Source: a virus
Length of the DNA stretch: 64,000 bases
IMG/VR virus record: IMGVR_UViG_3300045988_088152
Span: 1 to 64,000 of that record
Strand: one strand, 5' to 3'
The notes beneath the pieces are model-generated. The model searched no databases. It worked only from the letters and a program-made list of their open reading frames with translations, and was not told where the DNA came from. Every line of letters begins with the position of its first letter. The first letter of the stretch is position 1. This document shows positions 3-49,361 of this stretch, piece after piece. Made by a program: the position numbers and the translations under genes.

Positions 3-419
3 GGCAAATGGTTTGGCGGTTATGCAAATGGCGTAAAAACTAAACTTGGGACTATCCGAAATTATACTGATGAAGCTATTCGCAATATTAGAAAACAAGC
101 ATTTGAACTGAAAGGAATTGCGTTTGAATGTAGAGATTTCATTCGATACACGCTAGATGATGCAAACAATATGGTTATCTATTGTGACCCTCCCTACCGC
201 GATACTACTAAATATGCTACGTCTGACTTTCCGTATGAAAAATTTTATGCTTGGTGCAAAGAGATGGCTAAAACCAATATTGTTCTGATTAGTGAATATT
301 GGATGCCAGAGGACGGATTTGAATGTATCTGGGAAGGCAAACTGAAATGCACATTGGACAAGGCAAGCCGTACAACTAAAACAGAAAAATTGTATAGGTG
401 TATTCCATGCAAACAGTAA
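3..419 (+). CDS. DNA N6-adenine methyltransferase (Dam/D12-class-like), 5' end cut by the window edge
   Basis: The frame is open from nt 3. It contains the catalytic motif DPPY (..MVIYCDPPYRDTT..) and ends in TAA at 417-419. Confidence 0.7.
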   Translation, partial: GKWFGGYANGVKTKLGTIRNYTDEAIRNIRKQAFELKGIAFECRDFIRYTLDDANNMVIYCDPPYRDTTKYATSDFPYEKFYAWCKEMAKTNIVLISEYWMPEDGFECIWEGKLKCTLDKASRTTKTEKLYRCIPCKQ

Positions 420-3921: not shown

Positions 3922-4115
3922 ATACTGCTTATGGCGTTATCAAGCCTGATTATATGCATACAACTGCCAGTATGCAACCAACCAGAGTATGTTCAGTATG
4001 TGGAGCAAATGAGCTTGGATATACCGGTTCATATTATAGTAAAGATGAATTTTGGCTTTGTCCAGAATGTCTAAAGAGATTAAAGAAATTGCTTGACAAG
4101 GAGAATGAGGAATGA
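3918..4115 (+). CDS. small zinc-ribbon protein
   Basis: It has CSVC..CPEC cysteine pairs and its start is ATGA-coupled to the upstream gene. Confidence 0.5.
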   Translation: MNTAYGVIKPDYMHTTASMQPTRVCSVCGANELGYTGSYYSKDEFWLCPECLKRLKKLLDKENEE

Positions 4116-4309
4116 CCAAACGGCTATGTGATTTATGTGGTAAAGAGATTATAAGCATTAAAAACAGATATACTGTCAGCATTGATAATGATTGTGTACA
4201 AGCTGAATATTTTAAAGTTGTTGAGGACGTATGCTCAGATTGTGCCAATTCTATTTATCACTATATCGAAGGCTTAAAAAAGCCTCTTGACAAATCAACC
4301 GAATCGTGA
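4112..4309 (+). CDS. small zinc-ribbon protein
   Basis: It has CDLC..CSDC cysteine pairs and its start is ATGA-coupled to the upstream gene. Confidence 0.5.
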   Translation: MTKRLCDLCGKEIISIKNRYTVSIDNDCVQAEYFKVVEDVCSDCANSIYHYIEGLKKPLDKSTES

Positions 4310-4315
4310 TAATAT
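4287..4315 (+). promoter_or_regulatory. sigmaA-type promoter (TTGACA-17-TAATAT)
   Basis: Sequence cTTGACAAAT..17 nt..TAATAT. It belongs to the conserved cTTGACAAAT promoter family of this window and lies upstream of the 4337 gene and nrdJ. Confidence 0.55.
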
Positions 4316-4336
4316 ATAGGACAAGGAGGTAATGTA

Positions 4337-4522
4337 ATGACTGTTGGTGAATTTTATGACGCCATTGCACATTATGTCATTAGTTTTATGAACAGAGATA
4401 TTGTTAATCAATCTGTTCGCATCCATATTGGAAACCAGCTATATGATGTTGACCATATTGACACAGTAATTGATATGGATACCAATAAGCCAAATATTGT
4501 TATTCATGTTAAAGAGAAATAA
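4337..4522 (+). CDS. hypothetical protein
   Basis: An AAGGAGG ribosome-binding site lies upstream of the ATG. Confidence 0.5.
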   Translation: MTVGEFYDAIAHYVISFMNRDIVNQSVRIHIGNQLYDVDHIDTVIDMDTNKPNIVIHVKEK

Positions 4523-4537
4523 AAGGAGGACGATTTA

Positions 4538-6976
4538 TTGTTTGTAAATGAGGTATATGAATCTATTTGGAAAGATAGATACCAAAAGGATGGCGAGTCA
4601 TATGATAACCAGCTATGGCGTGTAGCTGATTTTGTAGCATCCGCAGAAGGGGATTGGAACGCGCCTAAATGGGCAGATAGATTCTTCAGTATTATGAAAG
4701 AAGGCTATTTCTTCCCCGCTGGACGCACCATGAGCAATGCCGGTATTGGCGAAAAGCTAACTCTAAACAACTGCTTTGTAGCACCTATTATTGGTAATAG
4801 CATGGAGCAGATTTTTAATGCGGTTAAGCTAGGTGCTATGACACATAAGGCTGGTGGCGGCATTGGATACGCTTTTAGTAATCTAGCACCTAATGGCTAT
4901 AAGACCCGTAATGATGCCATTGCATCTGGTCCAGTTAGTTTCATGGATGTATTTAATGCTCAGACGGCTACAGTACAGCAAGGCTCAAGACGCGGCGCAA
5001 ACATGGGTATGCTAAGTGTATATCATCCTGATATTCTTGAATTTATTCATGCTAAGTCAGCTACAGAAGGACGACTCAATCATTTCAACCTATCTGTTGT
5101 AGTAGATGATGCTTTTATGCATCTTGTCATTGACAATGGTCAAGTTCAGCTACATTGGCCTATTTATGATGAGAAGGGCAATAAGCTACCACCAGATAAG
5201 TGGGATAAGCAATTTACAAAGCTAGTTCCAGCTCGTGATATTTGGAATGAAATCATGCAGATGGCATATGATAATGGCGAACCGGGCGTATTCTATGAGG
5301 ACAATGCCAATAACCGTAATCCTGCATGGTATGTAGAAAGAATTGTTTGTAGCAATCCATGCGCTGAATATCTAGCAGGAACAATCAATGCAGCAGACCC
5401 ATCGCAATATGGTGGCGCTTGTAATCTTGGTTCGTTGTTCCTACACAATTTTGTAAAGAATCCATTTACTAAGCAAGCACATCTTGATACTGATGCTCTA
5501 AGAAATACAATCTCTATTGCAGTTCGTATGCTTGATGATATTATTGATGTTAATAAATTTCCTGACAAGATTTACGAAAATTATCAAAAGAGTATGCGCA
5601 CTATTGGTATTGGTATCACTGGTTTAGCAGATATGCTTGCTATGCTTGGCATGAAATATGATAGTCAAGAAGCGAGAGATTATGTTGAATCTCTAATGCA
5701 AATGATTACCAACGCAGAATATTATGCGTCAGTTCAGCTTGCTAAAGAAAAGGGTTGTTTCCCTCTATGTAAACCAGACAATCATATGCGCGGCAATTAT
5801 GTAATGGACACATTAGAATCTACATTGGCTAAGGATATTGCCAAATATGGCATTCGTAATGCTAAGATTCAGGCGGTTGCACCATGCGGCACAATCTCTA
5901 TGGCGTTTGGTAATAACTGCTCTAGTGGTATCGAGCCAATCTTCTCATTAAGCTATGACCGAAAGGTAAAAATTGGCGGTCAGGACGATAAGGACGTAAA
6001 AATCGTCAAGATGATGGATTATGCTTATTATCTTTATCATAAGCTAAAGGATGAGGGCAAGCAGCTTGATTTTGACGAACATGATATTTTCCCAACTGCG
6101 CTTAATATGTCTGTTGATGACCATGTAGCTATGCTTGCTATTATCAGCAAATATACCGACATGAGCGTCAGCAAGACAATCAACGTGCCTACTGAAGCAT
6201 CATTTGATAAAGTCAAGGATATTTATATTCAGTGTTGGAAGAAGGGCATTAAGGGTTGCACCATCTTTAGACCAAATGCAATCCGTCAGGGTATTTTGCT
6301 TACTGATACAAAGAAAGACACTGAGCCTAAACCTGAATCCACATCTCCTACTCTTCCTCGCGGCTCAATCATCGAACCAAGCAATGACCTGATTGGCAAA
6401 AAGCGCAAAATCCAGACAGGATGTGGCTCACTTCATGTTCTAGCATTTTTTGACCCTATTGATGGCACTCTACAAGAGGTATATTTCAATAAAGGGTCGA
6501 CTGGTGGATGTGCTAATTTCATGACAGGCCTAAGCCGCATGGTCAGTCTACTATGCCGCGCTGGTGTAGATATTATGACCATCAAAGACCAGCTTGATTC
6601 GACTGGTGTATGCCCATCTTATGCTACTCGCAAGGCAACTCATCACGATACAAGCAAAGGCTCGTGTTGCCCCATGGCTATTGGTAATGCTCTAGTAGAT
6701 ATGTACAATGAGATGCAGAGTGAGCTAGATGATAAAGAGGATGATATTCCTGTCACATCAAGAAAAATAAATAAAGCATCTAAAACAATCGCTGAAAATT
6801 TTGATAAGGCAACAGAGGTATTCAACAAAGTTGTCGATAAGCTTGCTCAAATGGCAAAAGATAGCGGTAATGTTTACAACGCACCAACAGAGGTGTGCCC
6901 TGAATGCGGTGAGCCTATCGTGCATATTGGTGGATGTGTGCAATGCCCTAATTGTTCTTGGAGTCGATGTGAATAA
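4538..6976 (+). CDS. nrdJ: Ribonucleotide reductase, class II (adenosylcobalamin-dependent)
   Basis: TTG start after an AAGGAGGA ribosome-binding site. RNR core motifs are present (NPCAEY, ACNLGS, APCGTIS), as is a C-terminal Cys-rich tail (CPECGEPIVHIGGCVQCPNCSWSRCE). Confidence 0.85.
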   Translation: MFVNEVYESIWKDRYQKDGESYDNQLWRVADFVASAEGDWNAPKWADRFFSIMKEGYFFPAGRTMSNAGIGEKLTLNNCFVAPIIGNSMEQIFNAVKLGAMTHKAGGGIGYAFSNLAPNGYKTRNDAIASGPVSFMDVFNAQTATVQQGSRRGANMGMLSVYHPDILEFIHAKSATEGRLNHFNLSVVVDDAFMHLVIDNGQVQLHWPIYDEKGNKLPPDKWDKQFTKLVPARDIWNEIMQMAYDNGEPGVFYEDNANNRNPAWYVERIVCSNPCAEYLAGTINAADPSQYGGACNLGSLFLHNFVKNPFTKQAHLDTDALRNTISIAVRMLDDIIDVNKFPDKIYENYQKSMRTIGIGITGLADMLAMLGMKYDSQEARDYVESLMQMITNAEYYASVQLAKEKGCFPLCKPDNHMRGNYVMDTLESTLAKDIAKYGIRNAKIQAVAPCGTISMAFGNNCSSGIEPIFSLSYDRKVKIGGQDDKDVKIVKMMDYAYYLYHKLKDEGKQLDFDEHDIFPTALNMSVDDHVAMLAIISKYTDMSVSKTINVPTEASFDKVKDIYIQCWKKGIKGCTIFRPNAIRQGILLTDTKKDTEPKPESTSPTLPRGSIIEPSNDLIGKKRKIQTGCGSLHVLAFFDPIDGTLQEVYFNKGSTGGCANFMTGLSRMVSLLCRAGVDIMTIKDQLDSTGVCPSYATRKATHHDTSKGSCCPMAIGNALVDMYNEMQSELDDKEDDIPVTSRKINKASKTIAENFDKATEVFNKVVDKLAQMAKDSGNVYNAPTEVCPECGEPIVHIGGCVQCPNCSWSRCE

Positions 6977-6978
6977 TT

Positions 6979-7584
6979 ATGGCAGAAGAAAAATTTGTAG
7001 AACCTGAATTATTATTAAAATATTATCTTGACGATAAATTGTCAACAAGACAAATAGGGGAAATTTTTAATATCACACATGGGGTAATTAAAACAAAGTT
7101 GAAAAAATTGGGCGTAGAAATACGCCCATTCAACTCAAAAGAATATTATCGAAATAGGACTAAATACGTAATTCCAAACGACCCAAGACGCAGCTATGTA
7201 AAAATTGCAGAAGAACAATATGGCAACAATTTACCGGATGGTGCAGTTATTCATCATAGAGATAGAAATAGAAAAAATTCATCTCCTGATAATTTGTTCA
7301 TTTTTCCATCAAGCGAATTGCATAATTCATACCATGGATATTTGAAAGTGCATGATTATATTGAACCGGAAGAATTTCTTGCACAATATCAGGAGTTATA
7401 TGAAAGAGTATTATCTTATGATTTCTTAAAAATGGAATATATAGATAATATGAAATCTGTTAAACAAATATCAGATGAAAACAAGCCTATAAGTAGATTG
7501 GTCATAACTTCAAGACTAAAAGAATACGGTATTTGGAATATGCGTAAGCCAACTGTAAACCAATATGATACAAAATGTGAATAA
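6979..7584 (+). CDS. HNH homing endonuclease (free-standing)
   Basis: It has the HNH signature HHRDRNRKNSSPDNL..LHNSYH and an N-terminal HTH-like region. It starts 2 nt after the nrdJ stop. Confidence 0.7.
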   Translation: MAEEKFVEPELLLKYYLDDKLSTRQIGEIFNITHGVIKTKLKKLGVEIRPFNSKEYYRNRTKYVIPNDPRRSYVKIAEEQYGNNLPDGAVIHHRDRNRKNSSPDNLFIFPSSELHNSYHGYLKVHDYIEPEEFLAQYQELYERVLSYDFLKMEYIDNMKSVKQISDENKPISRLVITSRLKEYGIWNMRKPTVNQYDTKCE

Positions 7585-7602
7585 GAGAAGGAGTAAACTA
7601 AA

Positions 7603-7827
7603 ATGACAGAAAATCGTATCAATTTCTATCTAGGCAGACTAGGTAATGAGGACTGGATTTGTTCATGTGATGAACTAGATCTAATGGGCGAACCAAACAA
7701 AGGTGATTTAGTATATCTACCAATCAATGCTGACGATGATGAACAGGAAATGTATGTAGTGCTACAGAAATATGTTGCGCCAAATGAGATTAGCTATTTC
7801 TGCAAGCCATATAATTGGGAGGATTAA
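7603..7827 (+). CDS. hypothetical protein
   Basis: ORF preceded by an AGGAG ribosome-binding site. Confidence 0.45.
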   Translation: MTENRINFYLGRLGNEDWICSCDELDLMGEPNKGDLVYLPINADDDEQEMYVVLQKYVAPNEISYFCKPYNWED

Positions 7828-7831
7828 ATAA

Positions 7832-8089
7832 ATGGAATTTCTACTAAGATATTTTATTGATGGCAATGAAGATTGTGAAGGACGTGTGTGGACATATACC
7901 CATGCCGCGCGTATGATTATCCCTCGTATTGGTGAGCGCGTATGGGTCGATGATAACACTTGTGTAGAGGTTGATATGGTAACATATTCGCCTAATTACT
8001 ATGATGAGGACGATTTATATTTAGTAGATGTAGAATGCCATGACATTACAGAGGAAGTTCTGACCGAATGCGATGAGGAGGACGACTAA
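7832..8089 (+). CDS. hypothetical acidic protein
   Basis: ORF with a D/E-rich C-terminus. Confidence 0.45.
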   Translation: MEFLLRYFIDGNEDCEGRVWTYTHAARMIIPRIGERVWVDDNTCVEVDMVTYSPNYYDEDDLYLVDVECHDITEEVLTECDEEDD

Positions 8090-22807: not shown

Positions 22808-25800
22808 TTAACTACGTCTTGTCACATATTGTTGTGCCAATTCTCTTAGTCCGCTTACGAACGACTGAGCATCGCGCACATTTGGTAATGTAACATTGCT
22901 AATATTGAGCGTCTGTGCCCAACTCTGTGCCTTTTGAGCCAAAGATGACAACATATCCCTAGGTGTCATAGACCCCCAACGCCATAGATTATCTGTAATG
23001 CCGCTTGGCAATATACCATCGCCCTGATTCAGCACTCTTAGCTCTGGACCATTTTCACCAACTAGAGATAAGCCACTATTGGCGCTTCTTGTCCCTTTGG
23101 CATAACCACTATATCCAGCTTTATGCATCTCAGATGCTAGGTTGAGAAGATAGCCCTTAGATATATCAGATTTTGACTTATTATATAGGTCTTGAATCTC
23201 ATCCTTAGTAATAGCTCCACTAAAGATTCTATTATATAGCCGTTGATCGCCAAAATCCTCCATGTCAACAGCAGTCGCCGCATTATATTGAGCCTGTGTT
23301 AACTCTGGATTTTTCTCAGTCCACTCATCCTTTTTGTCTACATAGTTTTGTCTATGAAGTATCTCTTTATCGAACCACCATGCTTTACTACCAGACTCAT
23401 ATGCCTCTTTGTATAAATCACGATTACTAGCCCATGTATCCTGTTTGCTAACATCTGTTCCGAAATATTTTGAGGCGGCTTCATCACCATATGCCTCTCT
23501 ATATTCCTTAATCATCTGTTGCTTAGTATCTCTGAGCTGAGTCCAGTATGCTACCTCGGATTGGGACTGAGCGTTCTTTATCTTTTCGCCAAAGTCGGTA
23601 TCAACACCATAATATTTTACATTTTCTTCACGAATTTGCTTTTTTAGTTCAGCTTTGCGTTCTGCTTTTTCATCAAGAGCAGCTTGCCTTGCGGCATATG
23701 CTTTTTGGATTTGGTTAAATGCCGCGCCCGGAGACATCGCACTACCAAATAATTTAGAAAGCTCACTATCACTTAACGACTCAAAGACAGACCCACTAAT
23801 TTCGTCTTTTAAAGCATCCATCAGATACTTCCGCAACTCTGACGGATACCTTTTTATTTTTCCGCCGGTTACATCGCCATCGCCAAAATATTGACTAAAG
23901 AATGCAGAAGATTTATCGCCAAGACTACTTAAAATATCCTGCATTTGGCGTTGTTCAACATCTCGATATGTTTCTTGGTAGTCTTTCTGTGCGCTAGATA
24001 TAGCATCAGCATCTTGCATATATTGGAAACGTCCTTCACTATATACTAGCATACGGCGTTGCTTAGCTTTTTCTATAGCCTCTAGCTTTTCTTCAAGAGC
24101 TATCTTATCCTCAAGTAGCTGATTCTGACGGTCGTATTCATCTGCTACTTCTTGAGCTACTTTACCCTCAGCACTTGCATTACTAATTGCAGATTTGACT
24201 GCTGCATCATATTGATCGTTAATAGAATCACTCATTGCGTTTATCATATCGCGCGTGCGTTCTATTGAGCTAATAATACTGTTTGCATCACCACTTGCAA
24301 ATGCTTGATTAAGAGAACCGCTAATCGACGCTACCGTAGATGATACCTTGCTCTTGACAGTATCTAACATGCCACTAAGCATATCAGATAAATTGCCACA
24401 ATTCTTTTCTACATAGTCCATTATTTCATCGATGCTATATTTACCATCCGACAATAATGACATTAGTAGATTTTTTATAGTCTCGACGAAATTAGCAAAT
24501 TCAGCCTCAGCTTGTTGATACTGTTCACTTGTTTCATCAAATCCTTGTTGTTTGAGCTGAGATAGATAATCCTGATAGGATTGATATATAGTGGCTACTT
24601 CTGATAGAGTTGACTCTAGGTCAGATTTGCTAATATCTGGATCAATTAGCTTAAGACGGGTTGATTCATCAGTTAGATATTCACGCAGTTCTTCAACGGT
24701 ATTGATGGTTTTAGCTTTAACCTCTTCTTGGTCTTTTTTTGTTGAGGATGAGCCTCCGCCGCCACCTCCTCCACCTGATGGGACAAAAGAGGATATTTGT
24801 GCAAGTTGCTCTTGATATTTCTTTTGCTCTATTTGATATTTCTCTTGACCTGCTTTATAAGCATAATCCTGTAACCATTTTTTATATGCAGCTGGGTCAC
24901 TTGCTACGCTCTTTCTATACTTCTCTTGATAAGTACGTTGTAGGTTTTTAGATAACTCGGTATCACTAAGTCCAATTCCGACTCCAGCAGCAGACATCAT
25001 ACTTGATATTTGATCGGTCGTTATCAACGCTGCTTGACCAACCGCATATATCTGATCAATAAGGTTTTTGAAGTTTGTCTGAGACTGTGCTTGTTGCGTT
25101 TGAATAAACAATTGCGCCATGTTAGCCATAGAACCGTTGGTAGACAACGCATAACTAGCAGTGTTTGTAAGCTGTCCATTAGTGTCAAATAGTGATTTGA
25201 CAAAATCCTCAGTTGCCCCGGATGCTCCTGCCGTTGCCGCCTTATAATTTGTAATTATCTCATTGTATTGGTCAAACTCCGATATTAATTCTTCTGTGGT
25301 TATACCAAGTTCTTGTACATCACTAGCTACTCCACTTAAATCAGTATTTTGTACTACACTATTAAGCGTTTCCCAATTAGTGATAAAATCAAGTTGCCAC
25401 TGGTCAAGATTTTCACCATTATCTGCAAGAATTTTTAGAGCATCGTAATAATCCTTTGTTGATGCAACAAGCTCACCTACTTGCTGAGTAGCAGAATCAC
25501 TAGATGTGATAACATCTTGAGTATATTTTGACCAATTAGCCAATGACTGTCCTTGAGATTTTGCCCAATCAATCGTCTTTTGCTTTTTTTCAGTGATTGT
25601 TACACCCAATTCATTAAGAGCATTTTGAGCAATTTCAGCAGCCTCGCTCCAATTTCCAAAAGAGGATGCCTCTAAATATGCCTCATATGTTGTAGAATCT
25701 ACATACTCATGTAGAGCTTCAAACGCTGCATTGGTTGCATCTTCAACAGACTCAAATGTTCCCCTCAACGCATTTGCTTGTTCATCTGTTATAGTTAGAG

Positions 25801-27166
25801 TTTGTTGCCAAGTTGTAAGTGTTTTGTTACCAAATTCATCTGTGCTTAATCCACTTACGGTTGCGCCAGTTACTTGCTTACCACCAGTTGTAACTTTACG
25901 AGCCGCCTCAACTGTATCTGTCTGACGTAATTCAATCAGCTTTTCATAAGCTTCAATCTGCTTTTCTAACTGCTCACGTTCTGCTTGTAATTCTGCTTCG
26001 TTACCATCATATGGTATATTATTAAGCTCATCTAGCTTTTTCTTAATTTCTTCATACCCTGTCTTGGTATTTTCTAGCTCTTGGTTAGCATCGTCCATAG
26101 AAGCAACAAGATTTTCAAACTTATTGTTTTCTACGGCTTGATTTACAGCTTTAATAACTTCAACTAAAGCCGTAATAGCTGCAACTGTGCCACCAACTAT
26201 TAGAGCAATTTTGCCACTAGCAAGCATACCAAGAAATGAGTCGCCACCAACGCCTAGATTTTTAAGCTGCAACCCAACCTCAGCAATTTTACCAACCGTC
26301 TGTCCAACTATGCCAACTAGACCAGTAACACCAGTGCTTAATACACCAATTCTAGTAATAGCCGCACCAACATCATTGTTGGCAAAATTGAGCATAGCTG
26401 TACCGGCATTGATAAAGCCACTAACTAGGTCTTTAGATAATACGCGATTTGCAAAATCTTCAAATTCTGCTTTAAGAGCCTGTTGCTTTGCTTCTAGGCT
26501 CTCCATATATTTACTGTTTTCTTGTGCCGCAGAACCAACCGACTCTAAGGCTGTTTTAGTTGCGTCAGCCGCATGATCAAAGTTCTGCATCACACTGGCA
26601 AGGACTTTATATTGATTCTGCCCCGCGATAGTATCACCAAGAGCCGTTCTTTGTGCATCTGTCATAGAATCCCATTTGGGCTTCAATTCAGATAACACAT
26701 CAAATGTACTCTTTAAGCTACCATCTACATTTTCTACTGTAATACCATATTCTGCAAGAGCATCTTTATTCTTTACAATACGAGCTGCAATCGTCGATAA
26801 ACCTCTGGCAACCTGACTACTGCGCCCTTGCATGATTTCTGTACCGCTAGTTACGAGACCTATGACTTGTTCAAATGAATTACCATAAGTAGCCATACCG
26901 CTAGCAGCAATTTCCATTGCTTGTGATAGGTCATTAGTACCCACACTGAAATTGTTTGCTACTTCGTTGTATGCATCAATAACATGAGTGGCAAAACTAG
27001 CGTCCTCACCAAATGCACGAATCTGTGAAACAATAGAGGCGGCTGCATCTTCTGCTGAAACAGCCGTATCAGCTACGTTCTGATAAGAAGCAGCAACTTT
27101 TGCAAGCATAGCGGCATCTGAATCATTAAATCCACTTTTTCGGAACATAGATGCTGCCGATACCAT
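22808..27166 (-). CDS. tail tape-measure protein, C-terminal major part (TP901-type core)
   Basis: 1452 aa. It begins inside the conserved TMP core (VSAASMFRKSGF..LSQAMEIAASG..GRSSQVARGL) and contains long coiled-coil and Gly-run regions. No ribosome-binding site precedes ATG 27166. Confidence 0.8.
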   Translation of the reverse strand: MVSAASMFRKSGFNDSDAAMLAKVAASYQNVADTAVSAEDAAASIVSQIRAFGEDASFATHVIDAYNEVANNFSVGTNDLSQAMEIAASGMATYGNSFEQVIGLVTSGTEIMQGRSSQVARGLSTIAARIVKNKDALAEYGITVENVDGSLKSTFDVLSELKPKWDSMTDAQRTALGDTIAGQNQYKVLASVMQNFDHAADATKTALESVGSAAQENSKYMESLEAKQQALKAEFEDFANRVLSKDLVSGFINAGTAMLNFANNDVGAAITRIGVLSTGVTGLVGIVGQTVGKIAEVGLQLKNLGVGGDSFLGMLASGKIALIVGGTVAAITALVEVIKAVNQAVENNKFENLVASMDDANQELENTKTGYEEIKKKLDELNNIPYDGNEAELQAEREQLEKQIEAYEKLIELRQTDTVEAARKVTTGGKQVTGATVSGLSTDEFGNKTLTTWQQTLTITDEQANALRGTFESVEDATNAAFEALHEYVDSTTYEAYLEASSFGNWSEAAEIAQNALNELGVTITEKKQKTIDWAKSQGQSLANWSKYTQDVITSSDSATQQVGELVASTKDYYDALKILADNGENLDQWQLDFITNWETLNSVVQNTDLSGVASDVQELGITTEELISEFDQYNEIITNYKAATAGASGATEDFVKSLFDTNGQLTNTASYALSTNGSMANMAQLFIQTQQAQSQTNFKNLIDQIYAVGQAALITTDQISSMMSAAGVGIGLSDTELSKNLQRTYQEKYRKSVASDPAAYKKWLQDYAYKAGQEKYQIEQKKYQEQLAQISSFVPSGGGGGGGGSSSTKKDQEEVKAKTINTVEELREYLTDESTRLKLIDPDISKSDLESTLSEVATIYQSYQDYLSQLKQQGFDETSEQYQQAEAEFANFVETIKNLLMSLLSDGKYSIDEIMDYVEKNCGNLSDMLSGMLDTVKSKVSSTVASISGSLNQAFASGDANSIISSIERTRDMINAMSDSINDQYDAAVKSAISNASAEGKVAQEVADEYDRQNQLLEDKIALEEKLEAIEKAKQRRMLVYSEGRFQYMQDADAISSAQKDYQETYRDVEQRQMQDILSSLGDKSSAFFSQYFGDGDVTGGKIKRYPSELRKYLMDALKDEISGSVFESLSDSELSKLFGSAMSPGAAFNQIQKAYAARQAALDEKAERKAELKKQIREENVKYYGVDTDFGEKIKNAQSQSEVAYWTQLRDTKQQMIKEYREAYGDEAASKYFGTDVSKQDTWASNRDLYKEAYESGSKAWWFDKEILHRQNYVDKKDEWTEKNPELTQAQYNAATAVDMEDFGDQRLYNRIFSGAITKDEIQDLYNKSKSDISKGYLLNLASEMHKAGYSGYAKGTRSANSGLSLVGENGPELRVLNQGDGILPSGITDNLWRWGSMTPRDMLSSLAQKAQSWAQTLNISNVTLPNVRDAQSFVSGLRELAQQYVTRRS

Positions 27167-27192
27167 CTCTGACGGTTATAAATTATCTAATA

Positions 27193-27396
27193 TTACAATT
27201 TCCCCCAACGCCAATCATCGTCTAATCCCCATTCATTGATTCGCCGCTCTTCCTCTTTGGTACGGCTATCAATATGATAAGACGATTGATTATTTTGTTG
27301 ATTATCATGCTTTCCAAATAAACCAACTATTACACAGTATAATGTCCAGATACCAATAGCTGGAAAAATCAACATAATAAGCATTAAAGCAAACAT
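27193..27396 (-). CDS. small membrane protein encoded inside the TMP intervening sequence
   Basis: ATG 27396 lies 8 nt after AAAGGAGG. The transmembrane segment is MFALMLIMLIFPAIGIWTLYCVIVGLF, followed by a polar tail. Confidence 0.55.
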   Translation of the reverse strand: MFALMLIMLIFPAIGIWTLYCVIVGLFGKHDNQQNNQSSYHIDSRTKEEERRINEWGLDDDWRWGKL

Positions 27397-27422
27397 GATA
27401 GATACCTCCTTTAAGTATCTAT

Positions 27423-27451
27423 AACATAGCACATATTAGATAATTTGTCAA
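27423..27451 (-). promoter_or_regulatory. promoter-like element TTGACA-17-TATGTT
   Basis: Minus-strand TTGACAaattatctaatatgtgcTATGTT lies upstream of the small membrane-protein gene. Confidence 0.35.
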
Positions 27452-27742
27452 GGGGTTTTCAATCCCTTCCTGAATATTTCTTCACCCTATATGTTTGGAA
27501 GGTCGCCCTGTATATTCGATTGACACACCGCTCATCACGGCTTCGCGCCCAATCTGCCCTTTTATGATACATTATTTATCATTGATTCTTTAGGTTTTTC
27601 AACCATTGAATCATCCTTATCGTCTTTCTGCTTTCGCACTAATTCATTGTTAATAATGAATGATTTTCACACTCAGGCATATCTCATCCTCATGTTGTAG
27701 TGATAAGGCTCTTGAGGCTTTCAAGGGTTTAGGGGCTGTTCT

Positions 27743-28189
27743 CTATGCTGCTTTACCATCGCAACATACCGGCTCAGACCGATTTGGTTTACCGGTTCTT
27801 GCTACTTCTCTACCAGATTGACTTAGCTTTGCAACGTATTTATCAAGTGCTGTACCCTGTAAATCACTGACCTTCTTGAAGTCGGTCATAGCATCATCAA
27901 GATTCTTGACTTGTTCATACATACTGCTCAAAGCACCCGTTGCTAAATCAAGAACTTGTCTAAATTGCTGATAGGTAACAGCAATATTTTCTGTTTCTGT
28001 ATTAAGATTCTCAGTAGATTGAGTTACACCATCTAGCTCTTTTTTGGTTCTCTCTGCACCATCTGCTGTAACGCTAATCTTTAACTTAGTATCCTTATTA
28101 TTTTGTATTTCTTTGAGTTGTTTCTTTATACTCTCTTCCTGTAGTTGAACATCAACCAGAATCGAGTAGTTAGAGTTACTTCCAGCCAT
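27743..28189 (-). CDS. tail tape-measure protein, N-terminal part
   Basis: ..LDDAMTDFKKVSDLQGTALDKYVAKLSQSGREVARTGKPNRSE.. is the N-terminal flank of the TP901-type core. The ORF then runs 9 codons further into the intervening sequence and stops at TAG. Confidence 0.65.
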   Translation of the reverse strand: MAGSNSNYSILVDVQLQEESIKKQLKEIQNNKDTKLKISVTADGAERTKKELDGVTQSTENLNTETENIAVTYQQFRQVLDLATGALSSMYEQVKNLDDAMTDFKKVSDLQGTALDKYVAKLSQSGREVARTGKPNRSEPVCCDGKAA

Positions 28190-28192
28190 TCA

Positions 28193-28693
28193 TCACACTC
28201 CCTTTTTTATTTGTGAGTAGGCTATGAGGATTCCTTCTGCGCAATCATCCTCATTCTTTTTGCTACTTGGGGCAACCCATGCCAAATCGAGGCTAAATTC
28301 TTCATTCGCCATCTCTATGGCTTTTTTCTTCAGAACATCTCTTTGCAATCCAGCTCTAGTGCCGTCAAAGAGATTAAGGTCGCCACGCCATTTACTTGGC
28401 ATCAAGAAGCATGGCTTTATCTTGAAGCCAGCACATAATGCTAATATCACGCCTTGTACTGCACCTAATTTCTCTATAGTAGACGCACCTTTTTTTAATG
28501 GCACTTCCTCTGCATAGAGAATTGTCGGCTTATACTGTCTAAATATGCTCGATAATTCCATAGTAAGCCCCATTACTCTATCATGCCAATCATCGCCCTT
28601 TGGTTTAATTGTGCCATATGCAATAAGTCGCCCATTATCAAATATAGACCATCCAGTAGATGACGTACTAGCATCTAATCCTGCTATAATCAT
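28193..28693 (-). CDS. ruvC: RuvC-family Holliday-junction resolvase
   Basis: MIIAGLDASTSSTGWSIF.., ..ILYAEEVP.. and ..DDCAEGILIAY match the RuvC catalytic D/E/D/D layout. Confidence 0.7.
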   Translation of the reverse strand: MIIAGLDASTSSTGWSIFDNGRLIAYGTIKPKGDDWHDRVMGLTMELSSIFRQYKPTILYAEEVPLKKGASTIEKLGAVQGVILALCAGFKIKPCFLMPSKWRGDLNLFDGTRAGLQRDVLKKKAIEMANEEFSLDLAWVAPSSKKNEDDCAEGILIAYSQIKKGV

Positions 28694-39261: not shown

Positions 39262-40839
39262 TTATTCTAATGAATCTCGGCTTGCTTCCCCAGATTCGGT
39301 CAGTGCGGTCGAATTTTCTCTTGGTCTACCACCTTCGTTATCTGAGCCGCCCTTGGTTGTATTGGTATTTTTCAAGAGCTGTGTATATTTATCGATCCAA
39401 CCTGTATATTTACTCTCAGCCATCATTGCTTCAAATACCTGCGGCTGATAACCAGATACGGATGCCCATGTCTGCATAGGTAGAACAATACCAGAATCAG
39501 CCATTTTCTTCACTTTGTCAAATCGAGCTTCACGCTCAAATGGGTAATTAGACCCGTCAAAGATAAATTTCCACTTATATTTCTTTGTTAGCTGATTAAC
39601 ATAAAATTCTAGGAAATTGCTAAACTGTGGATATAGCGGCTTCATAGTCTGGTACATATCATTAAGCCCAGCCTCAATCTCAGCATTGGACTGTCTATCA
39701 GAGCTATAAATAACACGGCTCACACCAGACCCAACACCGGCAGATGTAGCAAGTTGAGTGGAATACATATCTGTATTCTTATCCTCAAACTGATAGAACT
39801 TAATATTTTCAAGCGGCATTGCGGCAAGTTTGGACAATGATCCAAGACCAGCCTTTGCCTTCTGCATGAATCCCCCCAGTGTCTTTGGGTCAATTGCAAA
39901 CTGATTCGCTTTTGTGCCAGATTTAGCCGAATCAAATAGACGAATTTCACCAGCTAAAATAGCATAAGCTGACGCAATGTCCTTATTATACTGCAACTGA
40001 GCAATATCATCATTAGCAATGGCATTCTTCAGAAATGGCGCTAAGAAGGGCGTATTATTAAATGTACTAGGATTCCACTTAAATGCCCATGCGCCATCAC
40101 TAGGTGATGTTTGCGTCCACATAGCATATGCGCCATTTCGTCTATTTAATGGATTTGTAGGGCGATAATTTTTGAACGCTTCTTCCTCAGAGCCAAATAC
40201 ACGCTGATAATATTTCTTAAATGCTGGGTCAAATCCATTGATGTCTACACCAGCTTGTAGGAAATAGCTCATGTCAAAATCAAATAACATACCCTTTTCC
40301 CAATATCCGGTAAGTAGGCATCTATCTTGTGGCAAAATCTGTAGGGCGAATTTCATTCCTTTATTGCCCCACTTCGTCTTTCTGAACCAAGTGAAATATG
40401 TCTCATGCGTCACAATTTGTGCTACAACTTTACCAAATTCAGCCTTGTAGTCAAATTTGTTCAAAAAATCATACACACGCCGCTTATCCTCTTGGTATGT
40501 GCTTGATTCATAGTCACTCTGAGTAAAAGCATTGATGCAAACAGGCTGTAAGTCAAATGCTAGAGCATTGCAATATGCTTGTAGAGTTCTGGCAAATATC
40601 ATATCCCAGAATTTCATATATTCCATATAACCCTGAATTTGCTCTGAATTTTCCTTATATTCAGCAAGAGCCTTGCGAATTTTATCAGAACTAGGTGTTT
40701 CTGGGTTGTTGTTCAAACTCTGTAATAGTTGATTGCTCAACATTGGAGACCAAAAGCCAAACTGGTCATATGCATATAATGCTTGTGCAAATTCCGTTAC
40801 GGCTTGAGCCTGTTCAAATGTTACTAGCGGTTCTGCCAA
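39262..40839 (-). CDS. portal protein
   Basis: 525 aa with a TTG start after AAGGAGGG. The call rests on size and on position after terL. Confidence 0.5.
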   Translation of the reverse strand: MAEPLVTFEQAQAVTEFAQALYAYDQFGFWSPMLSNQLLQSLNNNPETPSSDKIRKALAEYKENSEQIQGYMEYMKFWDMIFARTLQAYCNALAFDLQPVCINAFTQSDYESSTYQEDKRRVYDFLNKFDYKAEFGKVVAQIVTHETYFTWFRKTKWGNKGMKFALQILPQDRCLLTGYWEKGMLFDFDMSYFLQAGVDINGFDPAFKKYYQRVFGSEEEAFKNYRPTNPLNRRNGAYAMWTQTSPSDGAWAFKWNPSTFNNTPFLAPFLKNAIANDDIAQLQYNKDIASAYAILAGEIRLFDSAKSGTKANQFAIDPKTLGGFMQKAKAGLGSLSKLAAMPLENIKFYQFEDKNTDMYSTQLATSAGVGSGVSRVIYSSDRQSNAEIEAGLNDMYQTMKPLYPQFSNFLEFYVNQLTKKYKWKFIFDGSNYPFEREARFDKVKKMADSGIVLPMQTWASVSGYQPQVFEAMMAESKYTGWIDKYTQLLKNTNTTKGGSDNEGGRPRENSTALTESGEASRDSLE

Positions 40840-41077
40840 ATTTCGCCCTCCTTTCTTTGTTTTATTGTTTATATATTAGAGCAGTTAGATTATGGACTTC
40901 ATTAACGTATGCCAAAGTTCATTGAGCTACTTATCCTCCCTATCCGCTCGTTTTATATTTTTGAGTGTTTTTATTTTCGGCTTTTGACTAAGCCTAAGTT
41001 GGAACTTGGATTCCACACAACCCTAATAGTACCTCCACGACAACACACCAACATAGTAGCCGCTTCATAGGCAAATA

Positions 41078-42922
41078 TCAATAGACTAATTGAATGGAGT
41101 CTATATCAAACTCATCTTCTTGCAACTGTTGTTGCCATGCGTTCTCAATCAAATCAATAATATAGTTACCATACATGATAGTCACAATTCTATCCTTTGT
41201 TCCTGTGCGCGGTTCTTCCAATTTGATTTTATCCTGCTTGATAACCGTCTTTAGATTAACTGCCTCTATAACCATCATATCAGTTTGACCATACGGCTCA
41301 AGCTGATTAGCTAATTCTTCAGCAGTGTATTGATAATATTCTCCACTATCTGTTAGCTCGTTCTGATAGTCTTGCATAGAAATAAGAAATTTCATATTGT
41401 TAGTTTCAAGCTGTTTGCGTAATGACAACCAACCACTACTGTTTAATTCAGGTGTCGCAATAACAGGTATTAAGCAAGGTACTGCGTTCTTATCAACCGT
41501 TCTACTATGATAATCGTCAACTTTAGCTTGAGATACTACTTGGTATTTATCAGCAAGCCCAAATCCACGAGAATCCCATCTTGAGCCTAAATCTGGACGT
41601 AGTAATGGTTCTGTCAAATGATTAAATATGACTTCTCCACCACTTCTTCCATCGAATGCGGCATAATCAGCGTCATAGACCCACCATAAATATCTAAATC
41701 TATCAGACGCGCCTATTGTATCAGAAGCATCATGCCCCTCTATATAGTCAACGTGTCGTTCAAATCTATTCTTTTTGCTATTCCAATGCGCCGACATTAA
41801 CGTTATAATGGTATTGTCGTTTTTTGTGCAACCAGTGGTGTTCGCAAAAGCAATATCCATGACTACTAACCGTATCTCGTCCTCTTTCTTTTCTGGAAAG
41901 TCAGGTTGTTCACCAGCAAAAAATTGTAATGCAGTGGGCGGACGGAAACAATGCTCAATGATTTGATTCTCTTTGAAAGATTTTAGATTAAAGAACGCAT
42001 CATCGCCCTCTGAAATCATCTCGTTCAAATCTTCCATTCTAAAGTCCATTTCGCCGCCAGCCTTACCATTCCAATAATCAGCCCACGTCTTAAAACCATT
42101 ATCAATAGCCATAAATATATCACCGGCAAAAATATTACATCTTACTTTGGTGTCGGTAAATATACGAGTAAATGTCTTTTTGAATAATAGCCAAAACCAC
42201 TCAAACTTATATCTAGCAGATGTGATATATATATGTTGACATTCCTCTTTCCAACGTGGATTATTACCATATACAGGATTACTAAGATATTTGGCTTGCC
42301 TTGGATGCGCCATCTTCTCAAAGACGGAATCAACCATGCCTTTTTTCAACAAGCGGGCTTCTTCATATGTAAGAATTGTTGCTCTTGGGCCACGAGAGCT
42401 ATCTTGACACGGTAATACACGCAAAGTAGAACCGTTAAGCTTGTTCTCTATTCTATAACCATCTTCTGGTTTAGTAATAACCAAATATTCATGCTCATAC
42501 ATATATAAGAGATATGGCGATAATTTTTTAATCAATTCATCCCTTATTTTATCTTCAACCATCTTGTTTGCCTGTGCAACAGTTGATGATGTAATTACCG
42601 CCTCTGTGTAAGGATAAAGATTCATCTTTACAATATTGCCTAGACCCACAATGAAGGTTTTGGATAAGCCACGACAACATATTGCAAAAAATACATCGGA
42701 TATGCCCATCAGATATATCATTATCATCTGAAATGGGCGCAACTTAATACCAAGAACTAAATCAACATATATATGCCAATTCCGGCGTAACTAGAATAAA
42801 GTCAGCCACTCTATAGCATTTTCCTCTTTCTTTGCATCTTTCATTGCGTTTTCTTTTGCTTTTGCCGTAATTAGGTGGTTTCCAAGGAACTTGCGTCTCA
42901 AGCCCCCCATCTGACTTTTCAT
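41078..42922 (-). CDS. terL: terminase large subunit containing an in-frame TAG at codon 44 (42791-42793)
   Basis: P-loop-like CCRGLSKT preceded by GIKLRPFQ. ATG 42922 has a ribosome-binding site (GGGTGGTGA) 17 nt after the upstream stop. The downstream TTG 42742 has no ribosome-binding site. The reading frame is continuous except for the TAG. Confidence 0.65.
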
Positions 42923-46787: not shown

Positions 46788-49361
46788 CTACTGTTTTAAC
46801 ATGTCTCCCGTGCGGACAGGTGGAGCTTCACGCGATTCAGTACGCCGCTGATTATCCGCCTTCTTATAGCATTCCTCTGAGCAATAATGCTGACATACAT
46901 CGCGCGGCTTGAATCGCTTGCCGCAAATGGGACAAATTGGATTGAGTTGCGCCGTATTGATTCTCAAATTTTCTACAATCGTCCAACCAAAACAAGCCCA
47001 CAGCATTTTCTTATTACTTGATTTTTTGACCGTATATAAATAAGCAACTAAGCTATTAACCACAACATCTAGCGGCTCATTGCTATACTCCACTATATCT
47101 TGTGTTATGCGGCGATATTTATACAAATCGTCTTCATTGATATGTGGGTCATCGCCATAATCGAATCGGCGCTGATTCCATATCCACCAATTATACCTCT
47201 CTATGATTGGTGAATTTTCTCTAGTGGTATAATCAACTGATTTATTTATCAGCATCGTCCAGTCAAATTTTCCAATCTTGTTATTATAGCGGATTCTGGA
47301 AGCAGGGATTTTTGTCGATATACGATTCATTGTGGAATTGTTAGGAGGTTCTACTTGGGTATCTGGGTCTTTGTCTTTGGCATATTGAAAGAAATTTGGA
47401 ACACGAGCTTTTGTATATTGCTTGATAGTGTTATTGATTTGTTTCGGTCGTTCTGGCAGCCATTGCGTCTTAGCGCAATCTATAACAGCGTTGTTCTCGA
47501 AACAAAGCCATTTTACTACATCTAGCTCTTCTTGTGTGATTTCGCCACTGTTCCATATTTTTGTAATATTGTTACTAACCGGTCCTATATTGCCTTTAGT
47601 ATAAGCATTGACCATTCCATTATACATGCTGTCTGGATTTAATAAGCCGCCCTTAGCTTTTTTGAGGTCATATGCTAGAGGAACTATATCTTGCATATTG
47701 TGTTTGGCGCAACTTGTCAACGTTCTATCTTTTACTACTAGAGCCTTATCCCCATCTACGTCAAACATAAGGTAACGTGAAATAAGGTCGTGGCAACTAG
47801 TATATATACACTTAGTTCCACCAAACCAATAATCAAGCTCTAAGTTGCGCCGATTCGTCCTAATTGCCCATTCTCGATATAGGTGCGGCGAACGTAAGCA
47901 AGCCAATGTTTCTTCGTCTCGATATTGATTTGTATATACATCGCCATCTGCAAGCAGTCCTTGTGGGTTTTGTTGTCCTAAAAATAACCATTCGCAAAAC
48001 GCATATAGATCGGGCGCTAAGAATAGATATTTTCCATTTACTCTAAGCCGCCCACCTTTGGCTTGTTTAACTAGGCTTTTTTTAGTCTGTTTCAAAATTT
48101 CTCGGTTATATGAATCTTTGAACAGCTCAGGATATATCAGCAACGCCTCTTGCATAGCTGATTTATACCGGTTATTCTCTGTTGCGCCAAGTAGCCTCAT
48201 AGTAACTTGATAATCATTACCAACATCATCAATCTCTTGCGCCGTCTTAGAGATGATGCGGTCAATCTCATTATCTGTCATATCGCTCAATGTCTGCAAC
48301 ATCTGATAGTTGATGCGGCTCTTTGGAATATAAGGCTCCTCTATATTGCAATAACAAGCATTGCATCCAAAATTTTTGAATCGCGCCTTATAGCAATCCC
48401 ACGAATCATAAAATTTCCATAGCTTGAATTGGCTCTTTGTGAATATATACCGTATATCTTCCTCTATAATTTTATGCTCATTTCCATAAATATCTGTTAC
48501 AGTTGTCTCCCCACCACATTTCTCTTTGATAAACTTGTCAAATGGAAATGTAACAAGCAATCCCTTTACCCATGGCATACGTACCATTCTTGTTGTTTCA
48601 TCAAGCATAATACCGCATCCGTCCATATGAGGAATAACCGTATTTGTCATCTCGCGTTTAATTTCATACGTAACACCATCAATATGGTCAACCAATCCCG
48701 GAACAGCCGTTTCCCAATCATCTACCACAATTGATTTGTCAATGTCAAAATCTTGCCAAACATCTGTAGCAGAGTTCATAAGCGCCAAATAAGCAAGGAA
48801 CTTGTTTTGATTCATGCCTCCCCGCTCATTGATTTCATCTATGGTCAAGCCGCACATCAATTTTTGCTCAATGCGCTTAAACGACGATTCTTTGACAAAT
48901 ACAGCTCTTTTCGTTCTTATCTGTCCTGCTGATGCAGTAAGGAACACATATTTTTCACCATTGTAAATAAATCCTTGACGAACTAGATTATTAAATACTT
49001 GAAAGAAAAATACGTTGATAATGAACAGCTCATCTGTCAATTTGAATGGCTCAAGACCTAAGCTGCGTGTTAAATCGGATTCAAATAGATTAACAACCGT
49101 CTTATCTGTCACAGCATCTTGTCGCAATTCTCTAGTTACGTTTCGATTTACTGCATCATCAAGCAATTCAGATAACCGTGCCTTTTCTTTTTTGAGTAAA
49201 CGATTTACCGACTTGATGCGCCAATCTGGCTTTCCGTCATCCTTCCATCGCTTACGCAACGAATATAACCGAACGAGCCGAGTATGTAATATCATTTCGT
49301 TATCGTCATAAAATGCGCTAGTATCTATTGAATGCAAATAAATTTGCGTCTGTAGGCTCAA
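46788..49361 (-). CDS. YonO-like single-subunit RNA polymerase (two-barrel, beta'-like catalytic motif)
   Basis: LRSPHLYREW..(36 aa)..MFDVDGDKALVV parallels beta' NRAPTLHRLG..NADFDGDQMAVH. A C-terminal zinc ribbon CPICG..C..C is present. TTG start after AGAGGTGA. It is followed by HU-like genes, as with yonO-yonN in SPbeta. Confidence 0.6.
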   Translation of the reverse strand: MSLQTQIYLHSIDTSAFYDDNEMILHTRLVRLYSLRKRWKDDGKPDWRIKSVNRLLKKEKARLSELLDDAVNRNVTRELRQDAVTDKTVVNLFESDLTRSLGLEPFKLTDELFIINVFFFQVFNNLVRQGFIYNGEKYVFLTASAGQIRTKRAVFVKESSFKRIEQKLMCGLTIDEINERGGMNQNKFLAYLALMNSATDVWQDFDIDKSIVVDDWETAVPGLVDHIDGVTYEIKREMTNTVIPHMDGCGIMLDETTRMVRMPWVKGLLVTFPFDKFIKEKCGGETTVTDIYGNEHKIIEEDIRYIFTKSQFKLWKFYDSWDCYKARFKNFGCNACYCNIEEPYIPKSRINYQMLQTLSDMTDNEIDRIISKTAQEIDDVGNDYQVTMRLLGATENNRYKSAMQEALLIYPELFKDSYNREILKQTKKSLVKQAKGGRLRVNGKYLFLAPDLYAFCEWLFLGQQNPQGLLADGDVYTNQYRDEETLACLRSPHLYREWAIRTNRRNLELDYWFGGTKCIYTSCHDLISRYLMFDVDGDKALVVKDRTLTSCAKHNMQDIVPLAYDLKKAKGGLLNPDSMYNGMVNAYTKGNIGPVSNNITKIWNSGEITQEELDVVKWLCFENNAVIDCAKTQWLPERPKQINNTIKQYTKARVPNFFQYAKDKDPDTQVEPPNNSTMNRISTKIPASRIRYNNKIGKFDWTMLINKSVDYTTRENSPIIERYNWWIWNQRRFDYGDDPHINEDDLYKYRRITQDIVEYSNEPLDVVVNSLVAYLYTVKKSSNKKMLWACFGWTIVENLRINTAQLNPICPICGKRFKPRDVCQHYCSEECYKKADNQRRTESREAPPVRTGDMLKQ

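Follow-up and report, generated by a model that had tools for sequence, protein, structure and literature searches.

We analyzed a 64,000-nucleotide (nt) stretch of viral DNA (hereafter the window; positions 1 to 64,000 of the IMG/VR virus record IMGVR_UViG_3300045988_088152) and find that its tape-measure protein (TMP) gene, which presents as two separate open reading frames (ORFs), is very probably a single gene split by a 618-nt group I-type self-splicing intron (27790 to 27173, minus strand). This intron, whose catalysis we infer, holds a cassette of a predicted promoter and a gene for a membrane protein of conjectural role, with no endonuclease. Comparison of related sequences establishes the splice junction, a co-varying fold and the conservation of the cargo. 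The parts of the split gene are as follows:

27743-28189, minus strand: TMP exon-1 ORF, 148 amino acids (aa), ending ..SQSGREVARTGKPNRSEPVCCDGKAA followed by a stop
22808-27166, minus strand: TMP exon-2 ORF, 1452 aa, beginning MVSAASMFRKSGF
27791-28189, minus strand: TMP exon 1, 133 codons, ending ..GCA AGA ACC GGU (..A R T G); intact homologues read ARTG-SEMV
22808-27172, minus strand: TMP exon 2, starting UCA GAG AUG GUA (S E M V), 1454 codons plus stop
27790-27173, minus strand: intervening sequence, the group I-type intron of 618 nt, AAACCAAAUCGG...UAUAACCG
27743-27745, minus strand: UAG stopping ribosomes from exon 1, 15 codons into the intron and within its P2 helix
27173, minus strand: terminal G (omega-G) at the 3' splice site; a G precedes UC[AG]GA.AUG in every member of the intron family having the 3' end

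As a preliminary description of this DNA had recognized, the two ORFs correspond to the halves of a TP901-type TMP, and the downstream one has no ribosome-binding site: no Shine-Dalgarno sequence is found upstream of it, where the DNA reads ..AATTTATAACCGTCAGAG immediately before the ATG. On its own, the downstream ORF enters the PF10145 profile at position 21 and the TIGR01760 profile at position 61. When the halves are joined, the match extends over positions 5-317 of TIGR01760 at 98 bits and positions 6-201 of PF10145 at 80 bits. Since both profiles are restored only on joining, a single conserved domain is cut. By these profile matches the TMP is a member of the TP901 family (TIGR01760 / PF10145), with one continuous core domain once spliced, and the predicted spliced protein is 1587 aa long with no stop inside. 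A 273-aa protein (P0050) from a 1074-nt ENA contig is 83% identical to the TMP N-terminus over its first ~80 residues; its remainder is an unrelated C-terminal part (PF18766), and it stems from either a chimeric assembly or a recombinant.

The intron ends were fixed from intact alleles, from the onset and end of conservation in ~30 contigs, from the P1 helix and from the terminal G. In each of the 11 uninterrupted homologues examined, ‘RT’ and ‘[EQD]M’ are separated by exactly two residues (for example, ..QVARTGSEMVMAAG.., ..ARTASEMVEAAT.. and, in Enterocloster phages, ..ARTADEMVEAAT..), and the in-frame codons just before the ATG of the downstream ORF are UCA GAG, i.e., S-E. Therefore, exon 1 ends ..ACC GGU (27791) and exon 2 starts UCA GAG AUG (27172). 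The comparison with TMP genes lacking the insert, which the preliminary description had proposed, thus came out in favor of one junction, with all 11 homologues fitting removal of 618 nt; this removal is canonical (U.G pair, terminal G) and in frame, giving ARTG-SEMVSAAS. Across the ~30 contigs, the upstream exon is variable up to ..ACYGG[U/C] and the sequence is then invariant from AAACCAAAUCGG, and the 3' boundary in all members is ..AC[CU]G followed by UCAGA.AUGG. Further, an intron-less allele in contig L005 reads ACTGGT joined directly to TCAGAAATGG, which is the ligation product predicted for intron-bearing alleles such as that of L033. Scans of IMG/VR and JGI metagenomes for the exact spliced junction or a near-identical intron-less allele returned chance matches in unrelated genes only.

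The preliminary description had instead excised 606 nt, which keeps the frame but places the junction wrongly, homologues and conservation giving 27173-27790 (618 nt). The shorter excision (KPNRSE-MV) yields ARTGKPNRSEMV, four residues too many relative to all intact homologues, and it is also disfavored by AAACCAAAUCGG, which stays conserved as intron while the exons diverge. Family hidden Markov models cannot separate the 606-nt and 618-nt excisions (98 vs 101 bits and 80.5 vs 81.2 bits). The junction peptide offered earlier, KPNRSEMVSAAS, is likewise wrong, as KPNRSE is translated intron. The +1 frameshift ascribed to the canonical junctions also disappears: the 5' site had been put after AAUCGGU (27781-27780) and belongs after ACCGGU (between 27791 and 27790), and the frameshift was apparent because the 5' junction had been set 18 nt too far downstream.

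The strands that are predicted to bring the splice sites together are these:

27791-27796, minus strand: P1 exon strand ACCGGU, pairing with 27768-27773; U27791 is the 5' splice-site U
27768-27773, minus strand: internal guide GCCGGU, the P1 3' strand; G27773 forms a U.G wobble with U27791
27774-27778, minus strand: P10 guide UCUGA, directly 5' of the P1 guide and complementary to exon-2 UCAGA
27168-27172, minus strand: P10 exon-2 strand UCAGA, pairing with UCUGA 27774-27778

In an alignment of 23 diverse sequences, the splice-site pair (12/30) is U.G in 20, C.A in 2 and C-G in 1, and the P1 pairs 8/34 and 9/33 show changes on both sides. The exon end ACUGGU accompanies the guide GCCAGU (L033, L055) and AGCGGU accompanies GCCGC (L057, L058), each a compensatory change; in L041 and L059, the exon ends ACUGGC and ACCGGC occur with ACCAG and ACCGG, respectively, with C.A in place of U.G and the wobble geometry kept. 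The exon changes matched by the guide are synonymous or conservative. Such apparent selection on exon-to-guide pairing is hard to explain without splice-site recognition at the RNA level. P10 is paired in 18/19 sequences having both sides, the L041 subfamily being without it, and RNAalifold also predicts this helix.

These comparative data bear out the guide GCCGGU, the CUGA/UCAG pairing as P10 and the terminal G (27173), all of which had been correctly picked out from the single sequence. The imperfect direct repeat noted at the boundaries (GGTCTGAG and CGTCAGAG) is there as sequence but really consists of the complementary P10 strands UCUGA and UCAGA. The hairpin AUCGGU-CUGA-GCCGGU, earlier taken as P1, was rejected: its AAUCGGU is a look-alike within the intron that is not conserved in L050, L057 and L041, and the compensatory changes fall in the guide instead. 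A hairpin between the exon and AAUCGGU given by RNAalifold is likewise unconserved in the same three relatives. Judged from this comparison, the AUCGGU-CUGA-GCCGGU hairpin is an alternative partner of the real guide sequence.

For the core, a group I model was built by hand and tested on alignments against shuffles and slid controls. In a first alignment of 22 sequences, 98.4% of the cells are paired and 23 pairs have changes on both sides; 0/500 shuffles reach this level and slid controls are 29-45% paired. P3, P4 and P5 were invariant in this set, and a looser pattern then brought in divergent subfamilies. In the second alignment, that of the 23 diverse sequences, 96.3% of the cells are paired and 28/69 pairs have both-side changes, with 0/500 shuffles again reaching the level and slid controls 29-42% paired. 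The elements of the modelled fold are listed here:

27745-27767, minus strand: P2 hairpin AUGUUGC-GAUGGUAAA-GCAGCAU, both-side changes in 4/7 pairs
27733-27736, minus strand: P3 5' strand GCCC, then J3/4 UAAA; pairs with 27505-27508, forming a pseudoknot with P7
27505-27508, minus strand: P3 3' strand GGGC, pairing with GCCC 27733-27736
27725-27727, minus strand: putative P4 5' strand CCC, pairing with GGG 27548-27550
27556-27718, minus strand: P5 and its extension; P5 is GCCU 27715-27718 with GGGC 27556-27559
27702-27708 with 27615-27621, minus strand: P5a, 3 pairs with both-side changes
27629-27638 and 27593-27604, minus strand: two GAAA-loop hairpins in the P5 extension, both co-varying, with variable hairpins alongside
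27524-27547, minus strand: P6/P6a, CGC-GAA-GCCG-UGAUGAG-CGGU-GUG, P6a co-varying
27514-27519, minus strand: P7 5' strand U[C]GAAU; C27518 is bulged and G27517 is the candidate guanosine-binding G
27484-27503, minus strand: P8 hairpin ACCU...GGGU, 2 pairs with both-side changes
27471-27483, minus strand: J8/7 GAAGAAAU and P7 3' strand AUUCA; C27472 pairs with G27517
27450-27468, minus strand: P9 hairpin AAGGG-AUUGAAAAC-CCCUU, both-side changes in 5/5 pairs

Within the core, the P3 pair 69/435 is C-G in 15 and U-A in 6 sequences; the P3 register is shifted in L056 and the helix is replaced by AGUG/CACU in L041. The P5 pair 85/385 is G-C in 21, A-U in 1 and U-A in 1, while the P6a pairs 401/414 and 403/412 each use two pair types, split ~11:11. 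In P7, pair 423/473 is U-A in 14 and C-G in 9, and pair 427/470 is A-U in 12, G-C in 6, C-G in 3 and G-U in 2. These co-varying pairs flank the invariant G27517-C27472 pair, which adjoins the bulged C27518; the bulge and this G-C pair would together constitute the guanosine-binding pocket. P4 is provisionally assigned by position and by analogy to the introns of sister phages and of SPbeta. RNAalifold independently gives P2, P5a, P6, P7, P8, P9 and P10, and the minimum-free-energy fold of the window sequence alone has P1 present (z = -2.2). A nested alternative from RNAalifold, pairing GCCC with a Q-side GGGC and CCCUU with AAGGG, was rejected, having one-sided changes only and four broken cells. 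The pseudoknotted group I topology is favored over the nested one because the changes in P3 and P5 are compensatory and those in the nested helices are one-sided.

The remainder of the intron, 3' of the core, carries the cargo:

27451 to 27423, minus strand: predicted sigma-70/SigA-type promoter TTGACA-17-TATGTT with TG extension, just 3' of P9; 10/12 matches plus the TG
27404-27412, minus strand: Shine-Dalgarno AAAGGAGGU (AAAGGAGGT site) of the cargo gene, read from the sequence
27193-27396, minus strand: cargo gene, 67 aa, with an N-terminal membrane helix, a charged linker and the C-terminal motif NEWGLDDDWRWGKL

The interior features reported earlier, namely the two GAAA hairpins, the TTGACA-17-TATGTT element and the 67-aa transmembrane gene, are thus all present. 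The promoter is the best match in the 3 kb scanned, and the cargo protein has a hydrophobic N-terminus of 27 residues. The cassette recurs in all subfamilies despite very different protein sequences: every member, whatever its subfamily, has TTGACA-(16-18)-TAxxxT, usually with TG, on the sense strand 3' of P9, and all members have a strong Shine-Dalgarno sequence and 1-3 tandem ORFs of 58-110 aa. In the L003 subfamily, the promoter is detached from the P9 hairpin, indicating that it is not merely part of a helix. The cargo proteins start with one to several membrane helices and have a charged tail, in many cases ending [DEN][DE][WY]G[YLFI], and it is the cargo that sets the variation in intron length, from 575 to 1066 nt across the family. 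A profile built from 14 cargo proteins collects 1136 clusters (90% identity) at E<=0.01, all unnamed, and no match of the cargo protein to Pfam, PHROG, NCBIfam or PADLOC rises above noise. Because these proteins diversify rapidly, occur as tandem paralogues and have moron-like expression signals, we favor, as a tentative guess, a role in phage-phage or phage-host conflict at the membrane, for example, superinfection exclusion.

Pattern scans of IMG/VR, exact-protein look-ups and one GTDB scan gathered a family of ~60 contigs, mostly 50-110 kb and from human-gut metagenomes, all of which carry the element at a single TMP site. The same element at the same site in ~60 independent contigs places it far beyond chance. 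Their context is constant: an N-terminal TMP ORF, a gap, a small ORF and then the remaining TMP. The GTDB genome scan returned a single contig of a metagenome-assembled genome (L039), which said nothing about a host or a prophage. No relative of the intron turned up among 50,697 phage genomes when these were searched with the region by megablast and blastn, and tblastn against annotated phages recovered only TMPs of 35% identity. Where the flanking exons of two phages are 61-78% identical, their ribozymes still share 90-96%, and identity in the cargo is anywhere from 31% to 95%. This suggests either that the intron has spread laterally or that its RNA is very strongly constrained, with the cargo turning over as a module; without an endonuclease of its own, the intron might move by reverse splicing, by recombination between co-infecting phages or through endonucleases acting in trans.

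A tblastn search of the spliced TMP against relatives uncovered further interruptions of the same gene, the window TMP having only the intron described above (site A):

Site B, ..LAG/(K/Q)NQ.. (the first slash marking the insertion point): L005 and Enterocloster phage CB457P1
Site C, after ..MESL(E/N)..: L005
Site D, between ..QGRS and SQVARG..: L060 and L064-L066

In L005, a 42-codon exon lies between two introns (5940-6433 and 6560-7981); such a mini-exon cannot be a stand-alone gene, and the introns in the TMP genes of relatives count in favor of the intron reading. By eye, the L005 and L060 introns have textbook P/Q/R/S elements (AAUUGACGGGAAC, AACCCGCAGCC, GUUCAACGACC, AAGAUAUGGUC). The site-C intron of L005 and the L060 intron carry endonuclease-type ORFs of at least ~365 aa, which have CxxC repeats and end in a Vsr/PD-(D/E)XK-like tail, and the site-B intron of CB457P1 (L001, OP172753.1, about 4057-5207) has a 157-aa ORF with CxxC motifs; GenBank lists the pieces of this TMP as three ‘hypothetical proteins’. 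The 494-nt site-B intron of L005 is ORF-less and contains a perfect TTGACA-17-TATAAT with TG at about 6215-6245 and no ORF after it; a hairpin precedes this promoter, in the same ACAAAU context as in the window intron.

Several observations weigh against a canonical, active group I intron at this site. P3, P4 and P5 are unusually short, at 3-4 bp, and the 3-bp P4 is invariant in all sequences and so beyond the reach of covariation; P10, too, is untouched by it, being nearly invariant (18/19) with no compensatory change. In two or three members of one subfamily (L003, L010, L025), the exon ends ..ACCGGC against the guide GCCGG, so that a Watson-Crick C-G pair replaces the U.G wobble. The 3' splice site lies ~280 nt past P9 (up to ~730 nt in relatives), with no P9.0 or bridging helix established. 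Local alignment to the SPbeta bnrdE intron is not significant (60.8 vs 51.3 +/- 5.1 shuffled). Lastly, the Infernal/Rfam group I check proposed in the preliminary description was run and came back negative: no model of Rfam 15, RF00028 included, matches at E<=10 on 2 kb or 431 nt of the intron region. L031, of the same subfamily as L003, L010 and L025, has a U at its 5' splice site.

As a positive control, RF00028 detects the SPbeta bnrdE intron at 92 bits and the bnrdF intron at 42 and 37 bits. It returns no match at E<=1 on the L005 and L060 TMP introns and also does not detect that of L001 (L064-L066 lay outside the scan); Rfam scans of the window intron and the sister-phage TMP introns found no intron family. 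The RF00028 seed lacks some group I subgroups according to a published survey (PMC11878797). In the window intron, only R- and S-like segments of P/Q/R/S are recognizable by eye. Its J8/7-P7' segment, GGGUGAAGAAAUAUUC, resembles SPbeta GGGUGAAGAUAUAGUC, the S element of the SPbeta bnrdE intron being GAAGAUAUAGUC; the block P3'-P8-J8/7-P7' (ACAGGGCGACC..AUAGGGUGAAGAAAUAUUC) parallels the SPbeta block ACAGGAGGCACCC..AGAGGGUGAAGAUAUAGUC, and P6 opens with GCGAAGC as in the SPbeta intron, all again by eye. The Rfam negative marks a genuine separation from the curated model but is not enough to overturn the structural evidence.

Of the mechanisms listed in the preliminary description, the group I-like intron has stood up, while DNA-level excision and a defective prophage find no support. 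Its fourth option, a moron, captured the nature of the cargo, with its promoter and membrane-protein gene, but the cassette lies inside an intron. As a full account, the insert would be a moron-type DNA insertion kept in the RNA, with the TMP made as 148-aa and 1452-aa polypeptides that assemble non-covalently. Each piece is indeed a complete ORF that begins with ATG, the insert brings a promoter and a gene of its own in the manner of morons, gene callers everywhere annotate the pieces as separate genes, and no Rfam intron model matches. Yet the downstream ORF has no ribosome-binding site, and the interruption splits a conserved domain at a point that is unbroken in all intact homologues. Moreover, the ~340 nt of non-coding insert, 90-96% conserved and rich in compensatory changes, would be needless for a moron; exon bases co-vary with a guide inside the insert, and the 42-codon exon between two inserts in sister phages speaks against it as well. 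The promoter and gene are present and conserved, but the cassette sits within an intron inside a gene and no terminator was found after it. We regard the account of an insertion kept in the RNA as improbable.

We likewise give little credence to a decayed group I intron, one that no longer splices or needs a host or phage protein cofactor, in a phage that is defective or has a crippled TMP. The very short P3, P4 and P5, the core unrecognized by RF00028, the C-G pair replacing U.G at the splice site of some relatives and the loss of any homing endonuclease, typical of a late stage in the intron life cycle, could all be read in this way. However, purifying selection on the core is strong, every helix open to testing has compensatory changes, the downstream TMP ORFs are intact across the ~60 contigs (50-110 kb), and an unspliced insert in so many lineages would be incompatible with the essential role of a tail gene.

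Other routes of removal, be it a group II intron, a small self-cleaving ribozyme, translational bypass or DNA excision between short repeats, have only a very slight chance of being correct: the loop UGAUGAG (CUGAUGAG in some relatives) has a superficial likeness to a hammerhead core and short similar sequences flank the insert, but the loop belongs to the co-varying P6a hairpin rather than a three-way junction, the ‘repeats’ are the complementary P10 strands, the insert has no recombinase gene, 618 nt is far above any known translational bypass, and the element starts AAACC and ends ACCG, with GUGYG, AY, domain V, a reverse transcriptase ORF and any group II or hammerhead Rfam match all absent.

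Under the favored group I model, exon-1 ACCGGU in the late pre-mRNA would pair with the guide GCCGGU to form P1, with the U.G wobble at the splice site, and the core would fold into P2, the P3-P8 and P4-P6 domains, P7 with its bulge and G-C guanosine pocket, and P9. Free guanosine would then attack after U27791, UCUGA would pair with exon-2 UCAGA as P10, and the terminal G27173 would enter the pocket. The ligated exons, ..ACCGGU joined to UCAGAG.., would encode the 1587-aa TMP (..VARTG-SEMVSAAS..); the expected junction peptide is ..EVARTGSEMVSAASMFR.. (EVARTGSEMVSAAS), and the spliced RNA should read GTAGCAAGAACCGGT joined to TCAGAGATGGTATCGGC. Ribosomes running into the intron are predicted to halt at the UAG 27743-27745 within P2. 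Transcripts from the internal promoter would be without the ribozyme, so that host RNA polymerase could make the small protein independently of the late tail operon, perhaps early in infection, or in the lysogen if the phage is temperate.

As a split gene, it belongs to a known kind, that of group I introns in phage structural genes: such introns are known in capsid and tail genes of Cluster J mycobacteriophages (PMC3706429), and phage introns have been reviewed (PMC3984707). With those of SPbeta bnrdE/bnrdF, T4 td/nrdB/nrdD, Twort and SPO1, the window intron shares the splice-site rules (U.G, terminal G, P10), the P3-P9 topology with the P3/P7 pseudoknot, the early in-frame stop after the 5' splice site, and insertion in a conserved part of an essential gene with presence/absence polymorphism between related phages. 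It differs from the SPbeta introns in escaping RF00028, and from the phage introns generally in its P3, P4 and P5 of 3-4 bp and in having membrane-protein ORFs behind a consensus host promoter where no homing endonuclease is found. The loop-encoded proteins described in a survey of Bastillevirinae are all endonucleases (PMC11878797).

The window family shares its layout, with an ORF after the core and a distant 3' splice site, with the T4 nrdD (sunY) intron. In sunY, a compact 5' core is followed by an ORF with its own expression signals, and the 3' splice site, hundreds of nt from P7/P9, is returned by P10 and P9.0-type pairings. The gene in sunY encodes the homing endonuclease I-TevII; in contrast, the window family encodes membrane proteins of 58-110 aa in 1-3 tandem copies, and no P9.0 pairing is established for it. 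In IStrons (CdISt1 of Clostridioides difficile; PMC3984707), the cargo comprises IS605-family transposases that give mobility. In the window intron, by comparison, there is no IS200/IS605 transposase in the 3' part, the cargo has no nuclease or transposase signature and the element is always at a single site; the position of the cargo 3' of P9 is all that is common to both. Phage morons consist of a promoter and gene between genes in late operons, usually with a terminator. The window cassette resembles them in its host-type promoter, its small gene, often for a membrane protein, its place on the same strand in the late structural region and its variability among relatives; it departs from them in lying inside a gene, where it would be made harmless by the ribozyme, and in lacking a terminator.

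The usual explanation for group I introns in phages is the homing endonuclease that they encode. The novelty here lies in a family of introns that are free of endonucleases and conserve a promoter and a membrane-protein payload, in a core that the current covariance model does not cover and in the abundance of the family in gut phages. We raise the possibility, as a doubtful one, that this endonuclease-less group I lineage, a subtype outside the covariance models, serves as a self-splicing ‘safe harbor’ for moron-type genes in an essential late gene. Its payload of a host-polymerase promoter and fast-diversifying membrane proteins (1-3 copies, >1000 clusters) would let it persist and spread through cargo benefit and not through homing. 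If so, a possible benefit is that competing phages are kept at the membrane, where the TMP itself acts, from delivering their DNA or lysing the cell, and the family of ~60 contigs offers a concrete system for asking whether an intron is kept for the benefit of its cargo. The cargo proteins seem to form a new and very large family of unannotated small phage membrane proteins, which are candidates for exclusion or anti-defense activity. More practically, gene callers and GenBank split such TMP genes into two to four ‘hypothetical proteins’ and RF00028-based screens miss the introns; hence, estimates of intron content and of TMP length, the determinant of tail length, are off for the abundant ~50-110 kb SPbeta-related gut phages. 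The co-varying alignment could seed a covariance model for a group I subtype absent from current libraries.

The surrounding genome is SPbeta-like, with a YonO-like RNA polymerase ORF, a ribonucleotide reductase and a RecD-like helicase; in relatives, the neighbors of the TMP include a YomU-type tube and other Yom-family genes. The YonO-like ORF, together with the Yom-family tail genes of relatives, places the phage among SPbeta-like siphoviruses, whose late genes are transcribed by the YonO-type polymerase. The ORF in question (46788-49361, minus strand; 857 aa) matches PF05183 (RdRP) and resembles the single-subunit RNA polymerase YonO of SPbeta. Directly upstream of the TMP in the tail module (28193-28693, minus strand) is a gene for a RuvC-like Holliday-junction resolvase (PF02075, PHROG 159/827), which is syntenic in the close relatives L063-L065 and is thus not part of the intron. 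In the structural region, between the ORFs 41078-42742 and 39262-40839, lies a drum RNA (40960-41073, minus strand; RF02958, 55.9 bits, E = 9e-8), the sole Rfam match above gathering score across the entire window. The RecD-like helicase ORF (398-3553, plus strand; 1051 aa) is ~300 aa longer than a typical RecD2 and shows a weak LAGLIDADG_3 match (residues 479-533, E = 8e-4) between its N-terminal HHH and AAA_30 ATPase domains; this segment may be an intein.

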